From an uncultured delta proteobacterium (lineage in GTDB: Bacteria; Myxococcota_A; Polyangia; Fen-1088): 64,000 bases of DNA. The translations under genes and the position numbers were made by a program. The notes under the pieces were generated by a model. It saw only the letters and a list, made by a program, of their open reading frames with translations, made no database searches and had not been told where the DNA came from. This document shows positions 2,561 through 47,976 of this stretch, in pieces. The DNA lies in assembly GCA_963737265.1 (NCBI GenBank), contig CAVTRY010000011.1, positions 1,024,001-1,088,000 of the forward strand, written 5' to 3'. How positions within the stretch are numbered: the stretch's first letter is position 1; the number at the start of each line of letters is the position of its first letter.

Positions 2561-3496
2561 TCAGCGCGCGCCGAAGACGGCCAGCACCTCGGCCAGCGAC
2601 GCCCCGCCGGAGGCGAGAAGCTGGCACTGGGCCGGCGTAAGTGCACCTACGGCCTTCTCGCTGGCGGCGGTGTTGGTGGTGTGCAGAGGCCAAAAGCGCG
2701 ATCCCTTGTGCTCGGGGTTCGCCAGGTACGCCAGCATCAGGGGCGGCGCCGGACCGAGGGCGACCAGCATGCGGGTCGCGGTCCAGACGAGCGACGGCGT
2801 GGGGGCGACTGGACCTAGGCGTCGGCGGATAAGCTCGAGCCAGAAGGCGCGCATGCCGTCGGTCGGCGTGGGACATTCCACGATCACGGTTTGCTTGGGC
2901 GACTCGGGCACCTTGGAGCAGACTTGGTCGCAGGCGGTCATGAGCGTGCTAAGGGCGTAGCCGCCGCCCTCGTTCAAGTCACCGATGGCGACCCGCAGCT
3001 CGAAGAAGCTCGATGCCGCCAGCAGCGCATCGAGCGGAAGCGCGGGCGCGTTCTGATCGAGCGTTTGTTTGAGCCAGTCGACCTGGGTGGCCAAATCCTG
3101 GGCGGACAGGTCGCGCGCCGCCTCCGCCACCACGGTCGCCGCCTCGAAGAAGGGCGCAAAGATCGACGGTACGAGCGGCACGGTATCGATGAGATTGCGG
3201 ATTTCGAGCGGCACCGAGATGACCAAGGGGAAACGGCGGCCGACCCCATCTTCTCCGGGAACGAAGACGCCCACGAAGGCGCCGCCCGACGGAGACACCA
3301 AGAGAAAATGCGCGGCCTCCGCCGGCAAGACGGTGTGCTCGGCGTGCAGGCATTCAACCCCCTGCTGAAACCAGAGATCGAGTCCGGCCTGTTGAAAGTC
3401 CCCGGCATTCACGCGCACGAAATCCCGTTCGGCGAGGATCTTTCCGTAAAGACCCACCGCGGGTTCCTTTATGCGCGACAGCGAATCACTCGACAT
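2561..3496 (-). CDS. tagF: Type VI secretion-associated protein TagF
   Basis: GLYGK...RDFV and PGEDGVGRRFPL motifs; directly after tssM; start set to ATG 3496. Confidence 0.85.
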   Translation of the reverse strand: MSSDSLSRIKEPAVGLYGKILAERDFVRVNAGDFQQAGLDLWFQQGVECLHAEHTVLPAEAAHFLLVSPSGGAFVGVFVPGEDGVGRRFPLVISVPLEIRNLIDTVPLVPSIFAPFFEAATVVAEAARDLSAQDLATQVDWLKQTLDQNAPALPLDALLAASSFFELRVAIGDLNEGGGYALSTLMTACDQVCSKVPESPKQTVIVECPTPTDGMRAFWLELIRRRLGPVAPTPSLVWTATRMLVALGPAPPLMLAYLANPEHKGSRFWPLHTTNTAASEKAVGALTPAQCQLLASGGASLAEVLAVFGAR

Positions 3497-39974: not shown

Positions 39975-40035
39975 CAGCAAACCCGCCGGGCCTCTATCGC
40001 AAGATATGCTCTCTCTCGGCGGGTGTTTCTTTTTC
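39975..40035 (+). ncRNA. Candidate abiF-like structured RNA (antitoxin/leader)
   Basis: Outer stem ACCCGCCG/CGGCGGGT, inner TATC-GCAA-GATA GNRA hairpin, U-rich tail, directly before the Abi gene. Confidence 0.6.
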
Positions 40036-40049
40036 AGGGTGAGGATGTC

Positions 40050-40967
40050 GTGAGGTTCACGAAGCCACCCCTGAGTGTCGAACAGCAGGTCGACCTCTTG
40101 CTGACTCGGGGAATACAAGGCGATCGCGGCGAAATGCTCCAGCGCCTGACCGCCGTCAGCTACTACCGCCTTAGCGGCTACTGGTTCCACCGCAAGCTGG
40201 CCGACAACACCTTTCAGCCCGGAACCCATTTCCAGGTGGTTTGGGACCAGTACGTCTTCGATCGCAAGCTGCGGATCGTGTTCATGGACGCTATCGAACG
40301 GATCGGGGTGGGTCTGCGGACGTTCCTATCGCTTCATCACGCCCATGCGCACGGTCCCTTCGGATACACAGATGACCCGGCCTCGCTTCCCAAGTTAGAT
40401 CCATCGAGACGTGCCGACCTTCTGAAACGCATCACCGATGAGGTGCAGCGAAACCGGAAGCGGGAGCTTTTCGTGAAGCACTTCTTCGACACCTACGGCG
40501 ACCACCACACCTTGCCGCCGATCTGGGTCGCCACCGAGGTGATGAGCTTGGGTTGCGTGCTCAGCCTTTGGCAGGCCACGACCAAGAAGGTGAAGAACGA
40601 AGTTGCCCGGATGTTCAAGGTCAGCGACGAGGTGTTGAAGACGTGGCTGTGGTCGCTAAACGAAGTTCGCAACATTTGCGCCCACCATGGTCGCCTGTGG
40701 AACCGCGATTTGGGGAACAAGCCGACCATTCCACACGCCAAGCATCATCCCGACTGGCATGCACCCGTCGCCATCCCCAACCACCGGGTCTTCGCTGTCT
40801 TGACGGTTTGCGCGCATTCGTTGACGCTGCTCGCGCCCCATAGCCATTGGCAACGTCGACTGCGGGGCTTGCTGAATCAGCATCCCAAGGTGCCCATCAA
40901 GAACATGGGCTTCCCAGAGAATTGGCTCGATTGTCCGATCTGGAAAGGTACCGCCGATGCTGCTTAG
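40050..40967 (+). CDS. Abi_2 (AbiD/AbiF-like) HEPN-domain abortive infection protein
   Basis: KPPLSVEQQV, YYRLSGY, FDRKLR, PPIWVATE, HEPN motif RNICAH, RLWNR. Confidence 0.9.
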   Translation: MRFTKPPLSVEQQVDLLLTRGIQGDRGEMLQRLTAVSYYRLSGYWFHRKLADNTFQPGTHFQVVWDQYVFDRKLRIVFMDAIERIGVGLRTFLSLHHAHAHGPFGYTDDPASLPKLDPSRRADLLKRITDEVQRNRKRELFVKHFFDTYGDHHTLPPIWVATEVMSLGCVLSLWQATTKKVKNEVARMFKVSDEVLKTWLWSLNEVRNICAHHGRLWNRDLGNKPTIPHAKHHPDWHAPVAIPNHRVFAVLTVCAHSLTLLAPHSHWQRRLRGLLNQHPKVPIKNMGFPENWLDCPIWKGTADAA

Positions 40968-40968
40968 G

Positions 40969-41022
40969 AAGCTGGAGAAAGCCATCAAGGGGAATTTGAA
41001 AGGACTGGGGTATGGCGGATAA
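40969..41022 (+). repeat. hsdM 3'-end segment, copy B (contains the hsdS start)
   Basis: Encodes [17 protein letters not shown] and overlaps the ATG at 41012. Confidence 0.85.
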
Positions 41023-42328
41023 GTGGACACGGGTTCGCGTTGACGAAATCGCGCAGCGGACGGCGACCGGTCCGTTTGGCTCTGCGATTAGCTCGAAGCA
41101 CTTTTGTGATTCCGGTGTTCCCGTCATTCGCGGCAGCAATCTGAGTCAGAAAACGGGCATTCGGTTGGTTGACGAGGGTTTGACGTTCGTCTCGGAGGAG
41201 AAGGCCAGGGAGTTCGCTCGCTCGGAAGCTCGGCCTGGGGACTTGGTATTCACTTGCTGGGGAACAATCGACCAAGTCGGACTCATCGACCGCCGCGCAC
41301 GCCACAAGCGCTACATCGTGTCGAACAAGCAAATGCTGTTCACCCCGGATGCGTCGCGGGCAGACAGCCTCTTTCTGTACTACACGTTCCGTTCACCGGA
41401 GAATCGTTCGGCGATACTGAACCAAGGAATTGGCAGCTCAGTTCCCGGTTTCAACCTGGGGCAGCTCCGCTCATTTGAGATCGACCTTCCGCCCCTCGCT
41501 GTACAGAAGGCAATCGCGGCGGTGCTTGGCGCGCTGGACGACAAGATCGAGTTGAACCGGCGGATGAACTCGACTCTGGATGCGATGGCGCGGGCGCTGT
41601 TCCAGAGCTGGTTCGTGGATTTCGATCCCGTCCGCGCCAAACTCGACGGCCGCAAACCCGAATGCCTCGACAAAGCCACCGCCGCCCTGTTCCCCGCCGC
41701 CTTCGAAGACTCCCCGCTGGGTCTCATCCCACGCGGTTGGGAAACGCGCAGCCTTGACAAGACCGCCAACTACCTGAACGGGCTCGCCCTCCAAAACTAT
41801 CCGGCGGGCGATGGCGATGATCTTCCCGTGATCAAGATTGCCCAGCTCCGCAAGGGCGACACCGATGGAGCAGACCGGTGCAGCGCCGACCTGTCACCCG
41901 AGTACATCGTTCAGGACGGCGATGTACTATTCTCGTGGTCGGGCAGCCTGGAGGTCCAGCTGTGGTGTGGCGGCCCAGGCGCGCTGAACCAGCACCTATT
42001 CAAGGTCACCTCGGCCGAGTTCCCGAAATGGTTCTGCTACCTCTGGACGTTGCACCACCTCGACGAGTTCCGCCTCATCGCAGCTGGCAAGGCGACTACC
42101 ATGGGGCACATCCAGCGCGGCCACTTGACAGCAGCCAAGGTCATCATTCCACCCCAGCCGTTGCTCAAAGCGATGACCCGCGTCTTAGCGCCGCTTGTCG
42201 ACCAAATCATCTCCAACCGCATCCAGTCGCGCACCCTCGCCACCCTGCGCGACACCCTGCTGCCAAAACTGCTGAGCGGGGAGCTGAGCGTAGACGGCCC
42301 GCGAGCCCTTCTTGAAGCGAACCCATGA
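41012..42328 (+). CDS. hsdS: Type I R-M specificity subunit
   Basis: Two TRDs with conserved regions PPLAVQKAIAAVLGALDDKIELN, ALFQSWFVDFDPV, LGLIPRGW, LATLRDTLLPKLLSGEL. Confidence 0.95.
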   Translation: MADKWTRVRVDEIAQRTATGPFGSAISSKHFCDSGVPVIRGSNLSQKTGIRLVDEGLTFVSEEKAREFARSEARPGDLVFTCWGTIDQVGLIDRRARHKRYIVSNKQMLFTPDASRADSLFLYYTFRSPENRSAILNQGIGSSVPGFNLGQLRSFEIDLPPLAVQKAIAAVLGALDDKIELNRRMNSTLDAMARALFQSWFVDFDPVRAKLDGRKPECLDKATAALFPAAFEDSPLGLIPRGWETRSLDKTANYLNGLALQNYPAGDGDDLPVIKIAQLRKGDTDGADRCSADLSPEYIVQDGDVLFSWSGSLEVQLWCGGPGALNQHLFKVTSAEFPKWFCYLWTLHHLDEFRLIAAGKATTMGHIQRGHLTAAKVIIPPQPLLKAMTRVLAPLVDQIISNRIQSRTLATLRDTLLPKLLSGELSVDGPRALLEANP

Positions 42329-42637
42329 ACGGCAACAAGCGCCTCCGAAGGGTCTTTTCTGTGAAGGAGGAACTCCTCAAGAAGTCCCGCGAGGCGGCGC
42401 TCGCTGCGGTGCAGATATTCAACAACCCAAACGTCACGTTCAAATCCGAGACGTACGTTATCCTCATGATTGTCTCGTGGACGTACCTCCTGCACGCTTA
42501 CTACCGGGGCCAAAGGATCGACTATCGCTACTACGCCCAGGGCGACAGACGAAGGCGATTCGACCGAACGAAGGGCGAGTATGCACTTCACAACACCAGC
42601 GGAAACCACAAAAACCTACACCTGACAGCCTGCTAGC

Positions 42638-42799
42638 CTAGCCCTTCGGCTTGGCCGGCGGCGGGTCGGCTGGCGTAGGCTCTTCCGGCCCCAGGGGCTT
42701 CGGTGGCTCGCCCCCGAGCACCTGCCCCATGATGCGGTCAAACTCGTCTGCCGGCATTCGTAGCTCCTCGTCCTTGCCCGTGGGCTTCTGTGGCTTCAC
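42638..42799 (-). CDS. Small 53-aa hypothetical protein
   Basis: GTGA overlap with the relE stop; EELRMPADEFDRIMGQVL followed by a Pro-rich tail. Confidence 0.55.
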   Translation of the reverse strand: MKPQKPTGKDEELRMPADEFDRIMGQVLGGEPPKPLGPEEPTPADPPPAKPKG

Positions 42800-43068
42800 C
42801 TGTACACGTCCTTTCGGTGGTCGATGTCGAGCACGCATACGATCACGCCTCGCACGCAATAGAGAATTCGGTAGTCACCTGAGCGGATACGGTAGATCCG
42901 CTCCGCCCCGTCTGCCATGCCCTGTACGATCTTGGCAGTTGTTGGATGTGGATTGGCGGCGAGTTGCTGGATCTTGGTGACGATTTGCCGACGCGGCTTC
43001 TTGTCGAGCGTCTTGAGGTAGTCAAGGCAGCACCGCGCATAGGCAAAGCCGTAGTATGGAGATGGCAT
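42796..43068 (-). CDS. relE: RelE/StbE-family toxin
   Basis: IQQLAANPHP, YRIRSGDYRILY, HRKDVYR; TGATG overlap with the upstream R-M gene. Confidence 0.92.
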   Translation of the reverse strand: MPSPYYGFAYARCCLDYLKTLDKKPRRQIVTKIQQLAANPHPTTAKIVQGMADGAERIYRIRSGDYRILYCVRGVIVCVLDIDHRKDVYR

Positions 43069-45803
43069 CAGGAGAGTAGCTCATCTAGTTCCGCCTCTAG
43101 CTCCGCGCCCTGCACCATGCTGTCCTTATTCTTTCGAATGCCAGCAAGCCTCGATGCGGCGATGGCCGCGTCGCGCTCATCCTCGGTCAGCGAGGATTCG
43201 TCATCGTCGCCTTCTGGTTCGTCATGCAGTCCTTCTATCTGCTTCGTGAGGAGTGTTGCCCGGTTCCGAAGGGCGACCCTTGTCTCAATGATGTGCCTAG
43301 TTTCGTCAATGATGCGCTTGCGCTCCTTGTCAGACTTCGGCACAGCGACCTTCAACTCAAGGACGCGCTTGCCTAGTGTGTCGATAATGTCCTGTGTGAA
43401 CTGCTTGGAACGAATCTGCCTTTTCACAACAGAGGTGTTTAGGCACGCGAAAAGTAGCCATGGATCAATTATCTTTGGATCTTCGACACGCAACCGGAAA
43501 ATGTGACTCTGGAATAGCATCGGAAGGTCGCTTTCCGTCACCATTGCGCACGTGCCTATGAGGTAGGTGCCGTCGCGAACGATCAAGATGTCCCCAGCAC
43601 GCGCATCCGAGCCAGAAGCATACTCTCCGTATATCGCCCTGCTCACTCCATGCTTGAAATCGGCTCGAATTTCCCACCCAGAAAGGTCCGATGATCGGAT
43701 GAATGGTATTTTGCCGGTTCCATATGCCATCTTCCCTGGCTCGACTCCCGTGGAGAACGAAACGGCTCCAGCATCAACCAGCTCTCCGATCTGCATCAGT
43801 TCGTGCGTCTTCAACAGTGAAACGAGATAATGGTCCAATTCGGGATTGTAATACTTCGGGACAAAGATATTGTTGCGAATCTCATTGGATTTGATGAGGA
43901 ACCCTAGGTGATCCCACTGGTCAGGTGCTCGGCGATTCGTCGTGCGGAAGCGTTCGCCGATCACGGGTACATCATCCAACAGTTCCGATGGTCCGCCCTT
44001 GAGGTTCTTCCGGATAGTAGGGTTACCCCGGCTATCGTGGCCACACCACTTGGCGTCGGCCATGAAGATGTTGTATGGCTGCCTCGGCGGTGTCCCCTTC
44101 TTGAGAAGCATGACACACACCTTGGTGTGAGTTCCGCCTTTGCCGCTTGTCTTAAAAAGAGCTTCCGGCATCGTGACTACGGCACGGATGGTTGTCCGGG
44201 CGAGCAAGAATCCGATCACGTAGGCATAGGACGGATTGCCCAGGATGCTTTCTGGAAGCACGATGCCGACCGATCCGCCCTCTTTGGCCAACTGTAGGCA
44301 GCGCTCCAAAAACAGCAGTTGGGGGACCTGATCATCGCGCACGTCAGTCTTATCAAATTCCAGGTCGCCCCCGTCTGCATTCTCGCGCCATTTGTGGCCA
44401 AGGGCGTACTGCACCAGGGTTTCCTTGGTATCGATCTTGAGCTTCGCACCAAAGGGAGGATTCGCTACGACAACCTGAAAGGTTCCCAGCTTGATTGCGT
44501 GGCGCGGTACAGGGTCCCACTGGTCGTGTGGGAGTAGACTGTTCAGGGAGAAGACTCCGCCACGACCATCACCCATTATGGCCATGTATGCCTTCGTCAC
44601 CTTGGCAAGGAAGGAGTCCTTGTCGATTCCTCGGAAACACTGCGATGCTACGCGGATCTTCTTTTGCTCCAACTGCGAAGCTGACCATGCCTTGCGCTTT
44701 CCCTCAGCTTCCAGCTTCCGCCAGACGTTTTCCAGCGCACCAATCAGGAAGCCGCCCGAACCGCACGCTGGGTCTACTATCCAGTCCCCCGGCACGACAT
44801 CGATCATGTCCATGAGCATTTGGACCACGTTGCGAGGTGTAAAGAATTGGCCATCTGCTCCTCGCAGAGCGGGACCAATGAACGTCTCGAACGCGTCCCC
44901 TATGGCATCGCGGCTCGCCCTCGTGAGACAGTAGTTTTGCAGCTCTCCGACAACGTAGGCGACGCTTGGGGCATCAAGCGAAATACTTTCGTGCTCGTCG
45001 AAAACGTCCGCATACTCTGCTTTCACTTTATCATTGAAGATTTCGAGTATTCTTTCTTTGGTGTCGGCTGGTTCCTCGTCGATTCCAGTGTGGAATGACA
45101 CTGCCTCGTCCGGTTCGGTATTCAGTTCGTCGTATAGCTTGCAGAAGAGAATGTTGATGATCTCTTTTGCCACCGCTTCGTCGCGCGTGGTCCCCTGGGT
45201 CAACTGGGCCAGATGGTTGCGTATGTCGCGAAACACAGCTCGAATGTTCGACGGCGGAACCAAATCGCGACGCTTGAACAGTCCGACATCTTCAATGCGC
45301 TGGCCACGCCTAGGGATCGAAGAGATATTCTCATAGTTGCGTTTCCCGTTGCGAAAGACCTTGCGAATGTAGAGGTGCTCGTCGCCGTTGAACCACACTC
45401 CTATGTCGGCCGGCGACATGTCCAGGTAAAGCTTCAATTGAGCAAGGCCATCCTTGCTCGTCTTCTTTTTACACTCAACCACCATGAACAGGTGGTCTTC
45501 TATCTTCTCGGCGTCCTTAAAGACGGCGATGTCGACCGGATACGCCCTTGCCTCGTCCGACGGGCGACTGCGAACCCTGAACTGTGGCCGCGTCTGAATC
45601 TGCGCCTTGTGATAACCGAAATCCTCTACCAGTCTCCTGGCAAAGACCTGTACAGCTTCGTATTCTTCACGAGTAGCTCTGACGGGAAGCTCGCTGATGA
45701 AGTCAATGAGCGTCCCCTCGGCGGGAATTTCGCTCAATTCCGATCCTGCGGGATCGTTGGGTCCGCTTGATGGCGTTTCCTGTCGCTTGGCCAACTTTGC
45801 CAT
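43068..45803 (-). CDS. Single-chain Type IIG-like R-M enzyme (nuclease + N6-MTase + TRD) with antitoxin-like C-terminal tail
   Basis: PVDIAVF...VECKK PD-(D/E)xK; GQFFTP, DPACGSGGF, NPPF; HsdS-like TRD (PFIRSSD, GDILIVRDG); acidic linker plus 40-aa helical tail. Confidence 0.88.
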   Translation of the reverse strand: MAKLAKRQETPSSGPNDPAGSELSEIPAEGTLIDFISELPVRATREEYEAVQVFARRLVEDFGYHKAQIQTRPQFRVRSRPSDEARAYPVDIAVFKDAEKIEDHLFMVVECKKKTSKDGLAQLKLYLDMSPADIGVWFNGDEHLYIRKVFRNGKRNYENISSIPRRGQRIEDVGLFKRRDLVPPSNIRAVFRDIRNHLAQLTQGTTRDEAVAKEIINILFCKLYDELNTEPDEAVSFHTGIDEEPADTKERILEIFNDKVKAEYADVFDEHESISLDAPSVAYVVGELQNYCLTRASRDAIGDAFETFIGPALRGADGQFFTPRNVVQMLMDMIDVVPGDWIVDPACGSGGFLIGALENVWRKLEAEGKRKAWSASQLEQKKIRVASQCFRGIDKDSFLAKVTKAYMAIMGDGRGGVFSLNSLLPHDQWDPVPRHAIKLGTFQVVVANPPFGAKLKIDTKETLVQYALGHKWRENADGGDLEFDKTDVRDDQVPQLLFLERCLQLAKEGGSVGIVLPESILGNPSYAYVIGFLLARTTIRAVVTMPEALFKTSGKGGTHTKVCVMLLKKGTPPRQPYNIFMADAKWCGHDSRGNPTIRKNLKGGPSELLDDVPVIGERFRTTNRRAPDQWDHLGFLIKSNEIRNNIFVPKYYNPELDHYLVSLLKTHELMQIGELVDAGAVSFSTGVEPGKMAYGTGKIPFIRSSDLSGWEIRADFKHGVSRAIYGEYASGSDARAGDILIVRDGTYLIGTCAMVTESDLPMLFQSHIFRLRVEDPKIIDPWLLFACLNTSVVKRQIRSKQFTQDIIDTLGKRVLELKVAVPKSDKERKRIIDETRHIIETRVALRNRATLLTKQIEGLHDEPEGDDDESSLTEDERDAAIAASRLAGIRKNKDSMVQGAELEAELDELLS

Positions 45804-45806
45804 GGT

Positions 45807-46775
45807 CTAGCTCGCCTTCCGTTGCGGAGAATGGAGCATGAGGCGCTTGCCTTCCATGCGGAGGATGCCGACCACGGTGCGCTCGCCGTCGGTCATCTTG
45901 CGGGTGTTGTACTTGTGGTCAAGCTCGGCGAAGTAGAGGTGCGTGTGCTTGTAGCTGATGCTGTGGTGGGTGCCGTCAATGCTGCGCTTGGAGTTTCCGA
46001 AGAAGCCCTCGGCGGTGTTCGTGGTCACGCGCACGCCATCTTCTGCCGTGCGCGCGTACTCCTCGATGCTGTGGTTGACGGTCTCGTGTGAAGAGAAGTC
46101 CTTGCCGACCTTTGTGTAGAGCGGGGATTCGTCGGTGTGCAGACTGGCTTCCTCGTTGACGTGTTCCTTCAAGAGCTTCGTGATCGCTTCGCCGGTCACG
46201 TGGTCGACCACGCGGGAGCGCACTCGGCCTCCGCGTTCAATGAGCGATACGACTGGCGTCTTGTTTCCCACGTAGCCCCGGCCTCGACCGCGCATCTTAC
46301 CACCCAGGTAGGTCTCGTCAGCTTCCACGATCCCGGTGAGCTGGTCCGACGGGAAGATGTCGGCGAGGGCGAAGCGGATGCGATGGCAGAGGAACAGGGC
46401 GCTGTGGTAGGAGCCAATCTCAAGCTGGCGTTGAAGCTGAAGCGCCGAGACCTGCGTCTTGCTCGCGCACATCATGTAGAAAGCGATCAGCCACTTGTTC
46501 AACGGAATGTGGCTGTCTTCCATGACCGTTCCGACGGTGACGGTGAAGGTGTCCTGGCACTCGGCGCACTTGTACATGCCCTGTCGGATCTTCGCGGCGC
46601 GGTTCGCGGTCAGCGCGTAGATCCTGAACTCATCGGCGTTTCCACAGTGCGGGCAGCTTCGGCCGTTGGCCCAGCGCACGCCCTCGAAGTACGCGCGCGC
46701 GGCTTCTTCCGTTGAGAAGCGAGCCATCACAGTCATCAGCGTGAGGTCGGAGCCGGTTGCGTTCTTCGTTGCCAT
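45807..46775 (-). CDS. IS1595-family transposase (Zn ribbon + ISXO2-like DDE)
   Basis: CPHC..CAEC, VEADETYLGG, LHTDE, VNHS, TTNTAEGFF. Confidence 0.95.
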   Translation of the reverse strand: MATKNATGSDLTLMTVMARFSTEEAARAYFEGVRWANGRSCPHCGNADEFRIYALTANRAAKIRQGMYKCAECQDTFTVTVGTVMEDSHIPLNKWLIAFYMMCASKTQVSALQLQRQLEIGSYHSALFLCHRIRFALADIFPSDQLTGIVEADETYLGGKMRGRGRGYVGNKTPVVSLIERGGRVRSRVVDHVTGEAITKLLKEHVNEEASLHTDESPLYTKVGKDFSSHETVNHSIEEYARTAEDGVRVTTNTAEGFFGNSKRSIDGTHHSISYKHTHLYFAELDHKYNTRKMTDGERTVVGILRMEGKRLMLHSPQRKAS

Positions 46776-46781
46776 GATCTG

Positions 46782-46810
46782 AAGATAGTATGATCTGAAT
46801 TATGGCGCAA
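46782..46810 (-). promoter_or_regulatory. Candidate leaderless promoter of the transposase operon
   Basis: TTGCGC-N17-TATCTT-N6-ATG; TTCAGATCAT repeated twice across it. Confidence 0.65.
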
Positions 46811-46816
46811 CCAAAA

Positions 46817-47047
46817 TCAACCTGTGTCTGTCGATTCTGTAGGATGCGTTAAACGCACAGCAGCCTCAACCGCCCATCTGCGAACACAGACCGAGTGGTC
46901 TTGCTCAAGAAAACGAGCTGCTGCCAGGATGGTGGCGCGTTCTTCGTCGGTAAGCGTCACATGAATCGTGTTCTGCTTGCGCCGTGGGTTTGGGGTGCGC
47001 GGGCGACCACGGCGGCGTTGGCTTTGTTCTGGCTGGGTTGAGTCCAT
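46817..47047 (-). CDS. Small DNA-binding protein (AT-hook-like GRPR + ribbon-helix-helix-like)
   Basis: RRRGRPR then IHVTLTDEERATILAAA; inside the transposon with its own promoter. Confidence 0.65.
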   Translation of the reverse strand: MDSTQPEQSQRRRGRPRTPNPRRKQNTIHVTLTDEERATILAAARFLEQDHSVCVRRWAVEAAVRLTHPTESTDTG

Positions 47048-47053
47048 GCACAC

Positions 47054-47082
47054 AACCTACCAGCACACTAATTTAAGCGCAA
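47054..47082 (-). promoter_or_regulatory. Candidate leaderless promoter of the RHH-like gene
   Basis: TTGCGC-N17-TAGGTT-N6-ATG. Confidence 0.6.
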
Positions 47083-47976
47083 CTAAATCATCCTAGGGTT
47101 TGACGTTCCGTGAACTAGGGCGTCACGTCGGGCGGTGTTGTGAAGTGCATACTCGCCGAACGAAGCATGGCGCCTTCAAGCACTGGGAGCTGGAGAGATG
47201 CCTCGATGAGAAGACCTGTCCGCTCCAGCGCGAGGTGGTTCAAAACCCGAAGTTCCTAACTGGACTCCGCCACGAAATCGAACACCAGATGACCACGCGT
47301 ATTGATGACCTTCTCAGTGCGCGTTTCCAAGCCTGCTGCATCAACTACCACGATGCCAGTGTGGCGCTCTTTGGCGAGGACCACGGCATCGCGAAGCACC
47401 TCGCTGTCAGCTTGCAGTTCGCATCTCTTGGTGCTGAGCAGATCGAGACCCTGGACCAACATCCGGGACTTCCGGGGTACGTAAGGCGATACATCGAGGG
47501 CTTCGATGGCGCACTGACTGCCGACGACTACACGAGCCCGAAGTTCGCCTACCGGGTCATCTTCGTCCCGAAGACGGTGAATCATCCGAGCCAGGCCGAC
47601 CAGGTCATCAAATTCGTCAAGGCTGACTCAGCGGTCGCCCAGCAAGTCAATGCCACCTACGCGGTCGTAAAGGAAACCGAGAAGCCCAAATGTCTTCCGT
47701 CGGAAATCGTCAGGAAGATGAAAGAGGAGGGTTTCCCTCGATTCGGCATGCACCAGCATACGGAACTCTGGAAAAGTATAGACGCCAAGGACATGGGCAA
47801 GGGCTTTGGCGTCTCCATCGGCAAGACCTGGTACTGGTACGACCCATGGCTGGATGAGGTTCGCAAGCATTGCAGGGACAAGAAGGAGAAGTACCAATGA
47901 CTTCAGGGTCCGGTGCGCGTGAAAGAACTTTGGCCTTCACCCTCAATTCCCTGGGCTTTACGAAGGAACTCGTGCC

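Follow-up and report, generated by a model that had tools for sequence, protein, structure and literature searches.

A putative RelE-neutralising tail on a transposon-borne restriction-modification enzyme

A stretch of 64,000 nucleotides from an uncultured delta proteobacterium (GTDB lineage Bacteria; Myxococcota_A; Polyangia; Fen-1088; assembly GCA_963737265.1, contig CAVTRY010000011.1, positions 1,024,001 to 1,088,000), referred to here as the window, contains an IS1595-family transposon in which the gene for a restriction-modification (R-M) enzyme is followed immediately by a RelE-type toxin gene and a small open reading frame (ORF). It is rather probable that the R-M enzyme carries in cis, as a C-terminal tail, the peptide by which RelE is neutralised, making the arrangement an addiction module with a tethered antitoxin, which would serve the transposon and the R-M genes it carries; binding is predicted by structural modelling, and neutralisation, lability and addiction are presumed. 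The R-M enzyme, an mRNA-cleaving RelE toxin and a small peptide would on this proposal constitute a three-gene module lying in one operon with the transposase.

The fused enzyme and its toxin

The features of the module are as follows, with coordinates given in the window and lengths in amino acids (aa).

43227..45803, minus strand: body of the fused enzyme, residues 1-859, with a PD-(D/E)xK-type HSDR_N_2 domain, an N6-adenine methyltransferase domain and one S-subunit-like target recognition domain (TRD)
43191..43226, minus strand: acidic linker HDEPEGDDDESS, residues 860-871, read from the translation
43071..43190, minus strand: antitoxin-like tail LTEDERDAAIAASRLAGIRKNKDSMVQGAELEAELDELLS, residues 872-911, a predicted RelE-binding peptide on the basis of its motif and of co-folding
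42796..43068, minus strand: RelE-type toxin, 90 aa, matching ParE_toxin, with an ATG that shares one base with the R-M stop codon
42638..42799, minus strand: conserved small ORF, 53 aa, with a GTG start at 42799 that overlaps the RelE stop codon (GTGA)

The whole fused ORF encodes 911 aa (43068..45803, minus strand). HSDR_N_2 lies at residues 52-164 (Pfam, E 1.5e-11), with a D...ExK pattern visible in the translation, and N6_Mtase at residues 297-586 (Pfam, E 3.1e-28), where DPACGSGGF and NPPFG can be read and are taken here to be motifs I and IV; the TRD follows in the same chain and is matched by the MAD5 S-subunit model at 641-842 (NCBIfam) and by Specificity_I at 663-857 (PADLOC). The enzyme is, judged by its domain content, a single-chain Type IIG/IIB-like R-M protein with a predicted nuclease, N6-methyltransferase and TRD. 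HSDR_N_2, N6_Mtase and an S-like TRD are likewise found in one chain in Type IIG/IIB-like enzymes and in MAD2/MAD5 of MADS, but membership of MADS was rejected, as the MAD2 model scored 344.4 bits against a cut-off of 720 and the element has no other MADS gene; a further difference is that among the enzyme's relatives the tail-less form is the rule.

After the last conserved helix (...TKQIEGL) the chain runs on through HDEPEGDDDESS into LTEDERDAAIAASRLAGIRKNKDSMVQGAELEAELDELLS. An original prediction, made from the letters of the window and a list of its ORFs, had described an R-M protein extended by an acidic linker and an antitoxin-like tail, and the tail was indeed found where it had been placed, at residues 872-911 (43071-43190), with no in-frame start codon in the window between the linker and the tail motif. 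The same prediction held that the R-M stop codon overlaps the ATG of RelE, which is seen in the junction TGATG, where the two share base 43068, and that no separate antitoxin gene lies upstream; the preceding gene is that of the IS1595 transposase, which ends 3 nt upstream of the R-M gene.

The 90-aa protein belongs to the RelE/ParE superfamily and, according to its sequence and to a predicted fold examined on a 56%-identical relative, falls in the RelE branch. The intact RelE expected behind the R-M gene is present at its full 90 aa and passes the Pfam PF05016 ParE_toxin cut-off (33.6 bits against 23, E 6.2e-08); it lies below that of NCBIfam TIGR02385 RelE_StbE (20.8 bits against 27.9, E 4.2e-04). 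Its profile matches the solved RelE toxins 1wmi (1.7e-05) and 4fxe (2.9e-04). The RelE part of the AlphaFold model of the relative, which comes from locus L051, has a pLDDT of about 90, and a Foldseek search with this model returned RelE toxins in its top 10 places (1wmi with TM 0.75, E 2.8e-06), ParE appearing first at rank 11. An alignment of 14 RelE sequences contains 27 invariant columns, including R60, R62, H84, R85, K86 and Y89.

Predicted binding of the tail to RelE

The tail conforms, over 13 sequences, to the motif AEDxxDxxIARxRLxxIxxxPxxxVSGxxLxxRLxxL, in which D15, R22, G36 and L39 are invariant. The co-folding of tail and RelE that had been suggested as a check was carried out with an alignment for each partner and yielded ipSAE values of 0.64, 0.66 and 0.67, as against 0.02 for the best of three controls; the mark used to judge such co-folds was reached by 58 of 80 solved complexes and by 2 of 110 mismatched pairs. 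The runs share at least 91% of their contacts, and the pLDDT of the partner is at least 73. The predicted interface takes in E11, D15, A19, R22, L23, G36 and L39 of the tail, that is, all seven invariant or nearly invariant columns, and R60, R67, D81, D83 and K86 of RelE, the conserved basic ones being R60, R67 and K86. From the contact list the tail would appear to form a helix, a short strand lying against the N-terminal strand of RelE, and a second helix. The charges of the two partners are matched, the tail being net acidic in 11 of 13 sequences and RelE net basic in 14 of 14.

A profile of the tail finds 324 proteins at E<=0.001 among 1.84 billion representatives, so the tail is not a chance sequence. 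Among the best 150 of these proteins 29 match Unstab_antitox (PF09720) at E<=0.1, the best at 5.2e-05, and other families account for at most two each; in the four proteins that were inspected the PF09720 match always covers model positions ~26-53, in the C-terminal half. With the same half of six bona fide Unstab_antitox proteins hhalign aligns the tail over 37 columns, at E 0.0016 and a probability of 16%. The tail is also carried by a small ribbon-helix-helix (RHH) protein, P0062. It is thus predicted to act like the toxin-binding end of an antitoxin, yet it is not classed as a member of PF09720.

The motif was also seen outside R-M enzymes (P0016, P0048, P0052, P0072, P0023, P0066 and P0090), where it precedes a MerR domain, follows DUF3489 domains, closes an N6_N4 methylase or lies in the middle of large phage-like proteins. 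Such proteins could be other tethered antitoxins or phage-encoded antitoxin mimics; no relatives of the phage-like protein P0090 were found among viral contigs.

Occurrence of the tail among R-M proteins

If the tail serves RelE, homologous R-M proteins might be expected to possess it only when relE follows, and this proposed check was run on R-M homologues: 24 related elements have both tail and RelE, and neither occurs at the 129 loci where the homologue, of one of three body classes, is tail-less. The 24, in which the tail and RelE adjoin, each consist of a transposase, an R-M protein with the tail, RelE and usually the small ORF; they comprise the window, locus L092, 13 loci from a RelE-based search and nine further loci of a body class referred to as class D.

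Tail-less homologues of the window's own body make up 126 loci (48-67% identity). All 47 homologues from genomes (48-65% identity) end 0-33 residues past the last aligned residue of the ...EVEG helix region, a stop zone close to the acidic linker of the window, and some of them carry a second recognition domain before stopping. The tail, RelE, the small ORF and this transposase are absent from all 47 loci within the fetched flanks, some of which are cut by contig ends. Metagenome homologues of the body are likewise without tail and RelE in 79 of 80 cases, the sole exception being L092, the closest relative (74% identity), whose 3.7-kb contig holds the transposase, a 906-aa enzyme whose tail is in frame, a RelE gene overlapping that of the enzyme, and the small ORF.

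The RelE-based search gave as its closest loci the 13 designated L048-L060, with a RelE 42-69% identical to that of the window. Directly upstream of RelE in all 13 is a large protein ending in a similar tail, which is in frame in 12 and in another frame in L053, and directly upstream of the tail-bearing gene, again in all 13, is a transposase of 64-83% identity. N6_Mtase was detected in seven of eight tail-bearing large proteins that were scanned; the eighth is the S-like subunit, encoded on its own, of the two-gene system in L059, and L091, a tail-less two-gene relative of it, has no RelE. In class D the transposase, tail and RelE are present at 14 of 16 loci, and the two tail-less loci (L185 and L187) are without RelE.

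The tail-bearing R-M bodies fall into at least six classes, with <=32% identity between classes, and because the classes differ in this way the body of the window is far closer to tail-less chromosomal homologues than to other tail-bearing enzymes. The backbone of the elements is better kept than the bodies, transposases being 64-83% and RelE 42-69% identical. Two decayed elements, L062 (2268-3356) and L070 (2212-3367), have a transposase that runs into a truncated RelE and have no R-M gene, the small ORF and a terminal repeat having been kept. These sequence comparisons support the view that the tail is a distinct conserved module, an add-on and not the normal end of this R-M family. The simplest history would be that of a conserved backbone, with the transposase at one side and the tail, RelE and small ORF at the other, into which different R-M genes have been recombined, selection keeping the tail in frame.

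Cultured carriers of the element are Bradyrhizobium yuanmingense ALSPC2050, Erythrobacter cryptus DSM 12079 and alpha proteobacterium BAL199. Across 401 genomes of the window's phylum the tail profile found the window's genome alone, and across 401 genomes of the class of G403, the genome that holds L051, it found 2 genomes, seed included. Many of the tail-bearing methylases in databases lie on contigs of ~4.0-4.8 kb, near the length of a whole element, which is what assemblers yield for repeated mobile DNA. The public names of the tail-bearing enzymes are only 'N-6 DNA methylase' or 'hypothetical', and because the records say no more than this the toxin-antitoxin (TA) content of such elements is missed by annotation.

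Proposed mechanism

In ordinary type II systems the neutralising part is found at the C-terminus of a small antitoxin. In the present case the last 40 residues of the enzyme, joined to it through the acidic linker, would be the RelE-neutralising peptide, and the enzyme would keep RelE silent with this peptide wrapped, as helix, strand and helix, across the toxin's conserved basic face. As RelE starts on the stop codon of the enzyme it is probably made by coupled translation, and the toxin would therefore not exceed the tail. The likely benefit of such an arrangement would be addiction, in that cells losing the element or the full-length enzyme would keep RelE without an antidote, and this would stabilise both the transposon and a single-chain R-M gene unable to enforce its own retention.

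A number of considerations weigh against this mechanism. Coupled translation would itself weaken any 'nonsense-mutation lock', a folded carrier of ~870 aa is not obviously labile, the fused enzyme has no DNA-binding antitoxin domain for autoregulation, and the conserved small ORF could be the true antitoxin or a second one. Since RelB-RelE complexes have already been solved, the success of the co-fold shows likeness and maybe not the binding of this particular copy. The similarity of the tail to recognised antitoxins is slight: the hhalign probability with the six bona fide Unstab_antitox proteins is only 16%, and of two free-standing antitoxins one was aligned at E 0.0041 with a probability of 8% and the other not at all. 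The window's tail on its own matched nothing at E<=1 in Pfam or NCBIfam, the tail profile found nothing significant among PDB sequences (best E 0.48), and the hidden Markov model of the tail missed the free-standing antitoxins beside distant RelE genes as well as the genome's own Unstab_antitox proteins, with nothing below E 1 in 1,651 segments; the six bona fide members went undetected by it. All of the tail-bearing R-M genes found belong to one transposon family, and for this reason the co-occurrence of tail and RelE could partly reflect common descent. The comparison with antitoxin families that had been suggested for the tail gave no match in Pfam, NCBIfam or PDB and a weak link to Unstab_antitox. 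Of the claim in the original prediction that the R-M enzyme is itself the antitoxin, what stands is the conserved tail module, its association with relE and the predicted wrap around RelE (ipSAE 0.66 against 0.02), and what does not is any more than a weak homology to RelB-type antitoxins.

Soil metagenomes bear on the same question. In contigs from four runs of one study the segment 43059-46134 is present at >=99% identity and free of insertions and deletions. This segment corresponds to the R-M gene with its tail and to the 3' third of the transposase, and in the soil contigs it joins unlike sequence at both ends, the divergence beginning 9 nt past the R-M stop codon; the second context is present at higher depth than the window-like flanks. 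A copy of the tailed R-M gene without this RelE may thus exist, which is a further point on the opposing side, and the second context may belong either to a mosaic element whose toxin allele is a different one or to a copy that lacks RelE. The 30-nt end of the unlike flank had no match in 171 loci or in the genome contigs.

Alternative explanations

It is conceivable, though unlikely, that the enzyme is a guard, as the original prediction proposed, at once sensor and antitoxin, and that binding by a phage anti-restriction protein, degradation or unmodified DNA frees RelE, so that translation stops in an abortive infection and defence persists. This explanation draws on the same predicted binding as the tethered antitoxin. 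The element lies amid defence-type genes, and annotations place its relatives among such genes as well; 'guardians' of R-M systems, for example PrrC and PARIS, are described as an established concept in PMC12707154, and PMC10440598 describes short neutralising elements on sensory accessory domains for PanA antitoxins. However, the flexible acidic linker, with no predicted contact between tail and body, leaves allosteric coupling not evident, the attachment of the tail to at least six unrelated bodies is better fitted by a generic tether than by a tuned sensor, and the strict transposon context suggests selfish maintenance. A low probability is likewise given to RelE being a latent second defence, which would be set free if a phage DNA mimic inhibits the enzyme or if the enzyme is clipped or cut short by mutation, the unit of tail, RelE and peptide then being a portable 'plug' that transposons have joined to at least six unrelated R-M enzymes. 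If this were true a single polypeptide would restrict DNA, provide a backup by abortive infection and act as a lock on the integrity of its own gene.

The possibility had also been raised that the 53-aa ORF downstream is the real antitoxin. The toxin gene would then come first, as in higBA, and the tail would be a docking site that recruits RelE or would have some other role. The ORF is conserved, being present in the window, in all 13 of the loci L048-L060, in L092 and in 13 of 14 class-D elements, and its start overlaps the RelE stop codon. It has 270 database relatives, which occur only with this RelE subfamily and have no database names other than 'hypothetical' or RelE/ParE toxin; the clusters of one homologue, P0157, are named 'hypothetical protein' only. 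Two distant relatives of RelE, L064 and L065, have an ORF directly downstream that looks by eye like a helix-turn-helix antitoxin. Against this, among the best 120 relatives 70 (>=130 aa) continue in frame from the C-terminus of a RelE and 49 are free-standing; such fusion would be odd for a labile antidote. In one clade (L051, L054, L056, L057 and L058, at about 2998-3440) RelE and the peptide form a single protein of 137-152 aa, reading ...DVYR and then MPKTK..., and in the window and other clades the two are separate with a 4-nt overlap. In an AlphaFold model of such a natural fusion the peptide has a pLDDT of 45-59 and follows a disordered linker; its helix (residues 105-116) lies below 60 and is not confidently docked, the alignment there being thin. 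An alignment of 16 sequences shows the motif E(L/M)RMxxxEFDxIMxxAL, a short helix and then a tail that is proline-rich and in most relatives lysine-rich. The peptide has no recognisable DNA-binding or antitoxin domain and no family match among Pfam, NCBIfam and PADLOC models, it is mostly net basic, like RelE, and the decayed elements retain it beside a broken RelE. That it is the antitoxin is accordingly regarded as doubtful; it may instead be a modulator of RelE or a second inhibitor.

It is hardly probable that the tail serves the R-M enzyme itself, for instance in oligomerisation, and that its adjacency to RelE reflects a shared transposon lineage only. This would agree with the confinement of every tail-bearing R-M gene found to one transposon family, with the weak similarity of the tail to known antitoxins and with the presence of the motif within other proteins (MerR, DUF3489 and phage-like). 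Yet the 129 tail-less loci, in three body classes, do without it, the tail is attached to unrelated bodies and in one case to a separate S-like subunit, always on the protein just before RelE, and the co-fold contrast with the controls is large and the charges are complementary. Lastly, the fusion of a separate small antitoxin ORF to the R-M gene by a sequencing or assembly error, which had been named as grounds for abandoning the idea and might be suspected from L053 with its tail in another frame, can be set aside as exceedingly improbable, since the contigs of the four soil runs have no indel at the junction, the reading frame continues into the tail at 12 of 13 genome loci as well as in L092 and further loci of class D, and there is no in-frame start between linker and motif.

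Relation to known systems

A tethered antitoxin of this kind would have much in common with the type II RelBE-like pairs, in which RelE/ParE is accompanied by Unstab_antitox (PF09720) or by RHH/Phd antitoxins: the toxin has the RelE fold, the coding sequence of the neutralising element immediately precedes the toxin gene, with stop and start codons overlapping, an acidic peptide is predicted to wrap the toxin, and there is weak profile similarity to the C-terminal half of Unstab_antitox. Adjacency of the tail to the toxin gene on its upstream side, as in type II antitoxins, is found in the 24 elements, with the overlap TGATG in the window. The differences are that a separate antitoxin gene is missing, as is any N-terminal domain for DNA binding or dimerisation, that the peptide extends the C-terminus of an enzyme of ~870 aa, and that a third small gene follows the toxin. 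Type II antitoxins are seen as small, labile, DNA-binding proteins, and the neutralising peptide appears here to have been relocated to a large enzyme, repeatedly, and onto unrelated enzymes.

PrrC-EcoprrI and RloC provide a parallel for a translation-blocking toxin held by an R-M protein, as is proposed for the window, with its gene in or beside the R-M locus, according to the account in PMC12707154. PrrC differs, however, in being a tRNA anticodon nuclease unrelated to RelE which binds a multi-subunit Type Ic enzyme without a recognisable antitoxin motif, and its activation by phage T4 Stp has been demonstrated, whereas a comparable trigger for the RelE of the window is hypothetical. An ATPase-anticodon nuclease of the PrrC/RloC type was ruled out for the window, the toxin having the RelE fold. 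In the NetFlax study Phd-C on Panacea/PanA is presented as a short C-terminal element that neutralises, the large domain being accessory or a possible sensor (PMC10440598); the accessory domain is here a complete R-M enzyme, the toxin is RelE and neutralisation is presumed. Transposons of the Tn3 family are described as having TA modules integral to the transposon and beside the transposition genes (PMC7157771), but those described there are ordinary two-gene pairs, and the present element belongs to the IS1595 family with the antitoxin apparently fused to a cargo enzyme. The concept of a 'transporter IS' for IS1595 elements with passenger genes is given in PMC3129680, which credits Siguier et al. 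2009. The window's element shares with these a zinc-ribbon transposase, terminal repeats, an 8-bp duplication and extra genes inside the repeats, and differs in its passenger set of tailed R-M enzyme, RelE and small ORF, for which no record was found in the literature searched.

The literature search, in which the supplementary tables of the NetFlax (PMC10440598) and Tn3 (PMC7157771) papers were not included, brought up no account of an antitoxin peptide joined to an R-M enzyme. The parts are of known kinds (RelE, an antitoxin-like peptide, a Type IIG/IIB-like enzyme and an IS1595 'transporter IS') and what is new is the combination, namely a predicted neutralising peptide that is fused to an R-M enzyme and kept across unrelated enzymes, together with a third peptide gene. 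If binding is confirmed the module would be a natural case of a protein made 'addictive' by a tag of 40 residues, it would show how a single-chain R-M gene and a transposon can enforce their own retention, and it would connect restriction with toxin-mediated growth arrest in a way that is open to direct testing.

The transposon and its insertion site

The remaining features of the element and of the gene into which it is inserted are listed below.

42574..47157: IS1595-family transposon with passenger genes, 4,584 bp, recognised by its repeats, target duplication, transposase domains and the ends of related elements
42574..42597: terminal inverted repeat on the small-ORF side, 24 nt, 100% complementary to 47134-47157
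47134..47157: terminal inverted repeat on the transposase side, 24 nt
45807..46775, minus strand: IS1595-family transposase, 322 aa (DDE_Tnp_IS1595 1.2e-33, Zn_ribbon_IS1595 6.6e-13)
46817..47053, minus strand: doubtful 78-aa ORF between the transposase and the inverted repeat, with no family match
42325..42573, plus strand: 5' part of a host DUF3644 / PDC-S19 gene split by the insertion (DUF3644 profile positions 1-75)
47158-47900: 3' part of the split host gene (DUF3644 positions 60-180; PDC-S19 1.4e-111)

The transposase has its zinc ribbon N-terminal to the DDE_Tnp_IS1595 domain. The target duplication GAACGAAG is an 8-bp direct repeat at 42566-42573 and 47158-47165, a length typical of the IS1595 family. 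Both flanks of the transposon are halves of one DUF3644 / PDC-S19 gene, which is restored when the insertion is removed at the duplication. Because the inverted repeats, the GAACGAAG duplication and the split host gene frame 42574-47157, the genes between the repeats, namely the R-M gene, relE and the small ORF, are the cargo of the transposon. Repeat-like ends were also found downstream of the small ORF in 11 of the 13 loci L048-L060 (1-6 mismatches) and just upstream of the transposase in all five extended loci L079-L083 (2-3 mismatches). A scan of the element revealed no promoter-like sites and terminator-like sites at chance level. The transposon gave one match in the source genome.

The target of the insertion is a host defence island, with an AbiD-like gene at 40023-40967, a Type I specificity subunit at 41012-42328 and the DUF3644 / PDC-S19 gene, itself a candidate defence gene. 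The 78-aa ORF, which looks ribbon-helix-helix-like by eye, lies within ~280 bp of additional DNA that separates the transposase from the inverted repeat. Five related elements have ~25-80 nt at this place, which leaves no space for the ORF; it may encode a regulator peculiar to this copy or may not be a gene at all. The genome G403 contains a single R-M/RelE element and, in many identical copies, another IS1595-family transposase that shares 35% identity with the one in the window.

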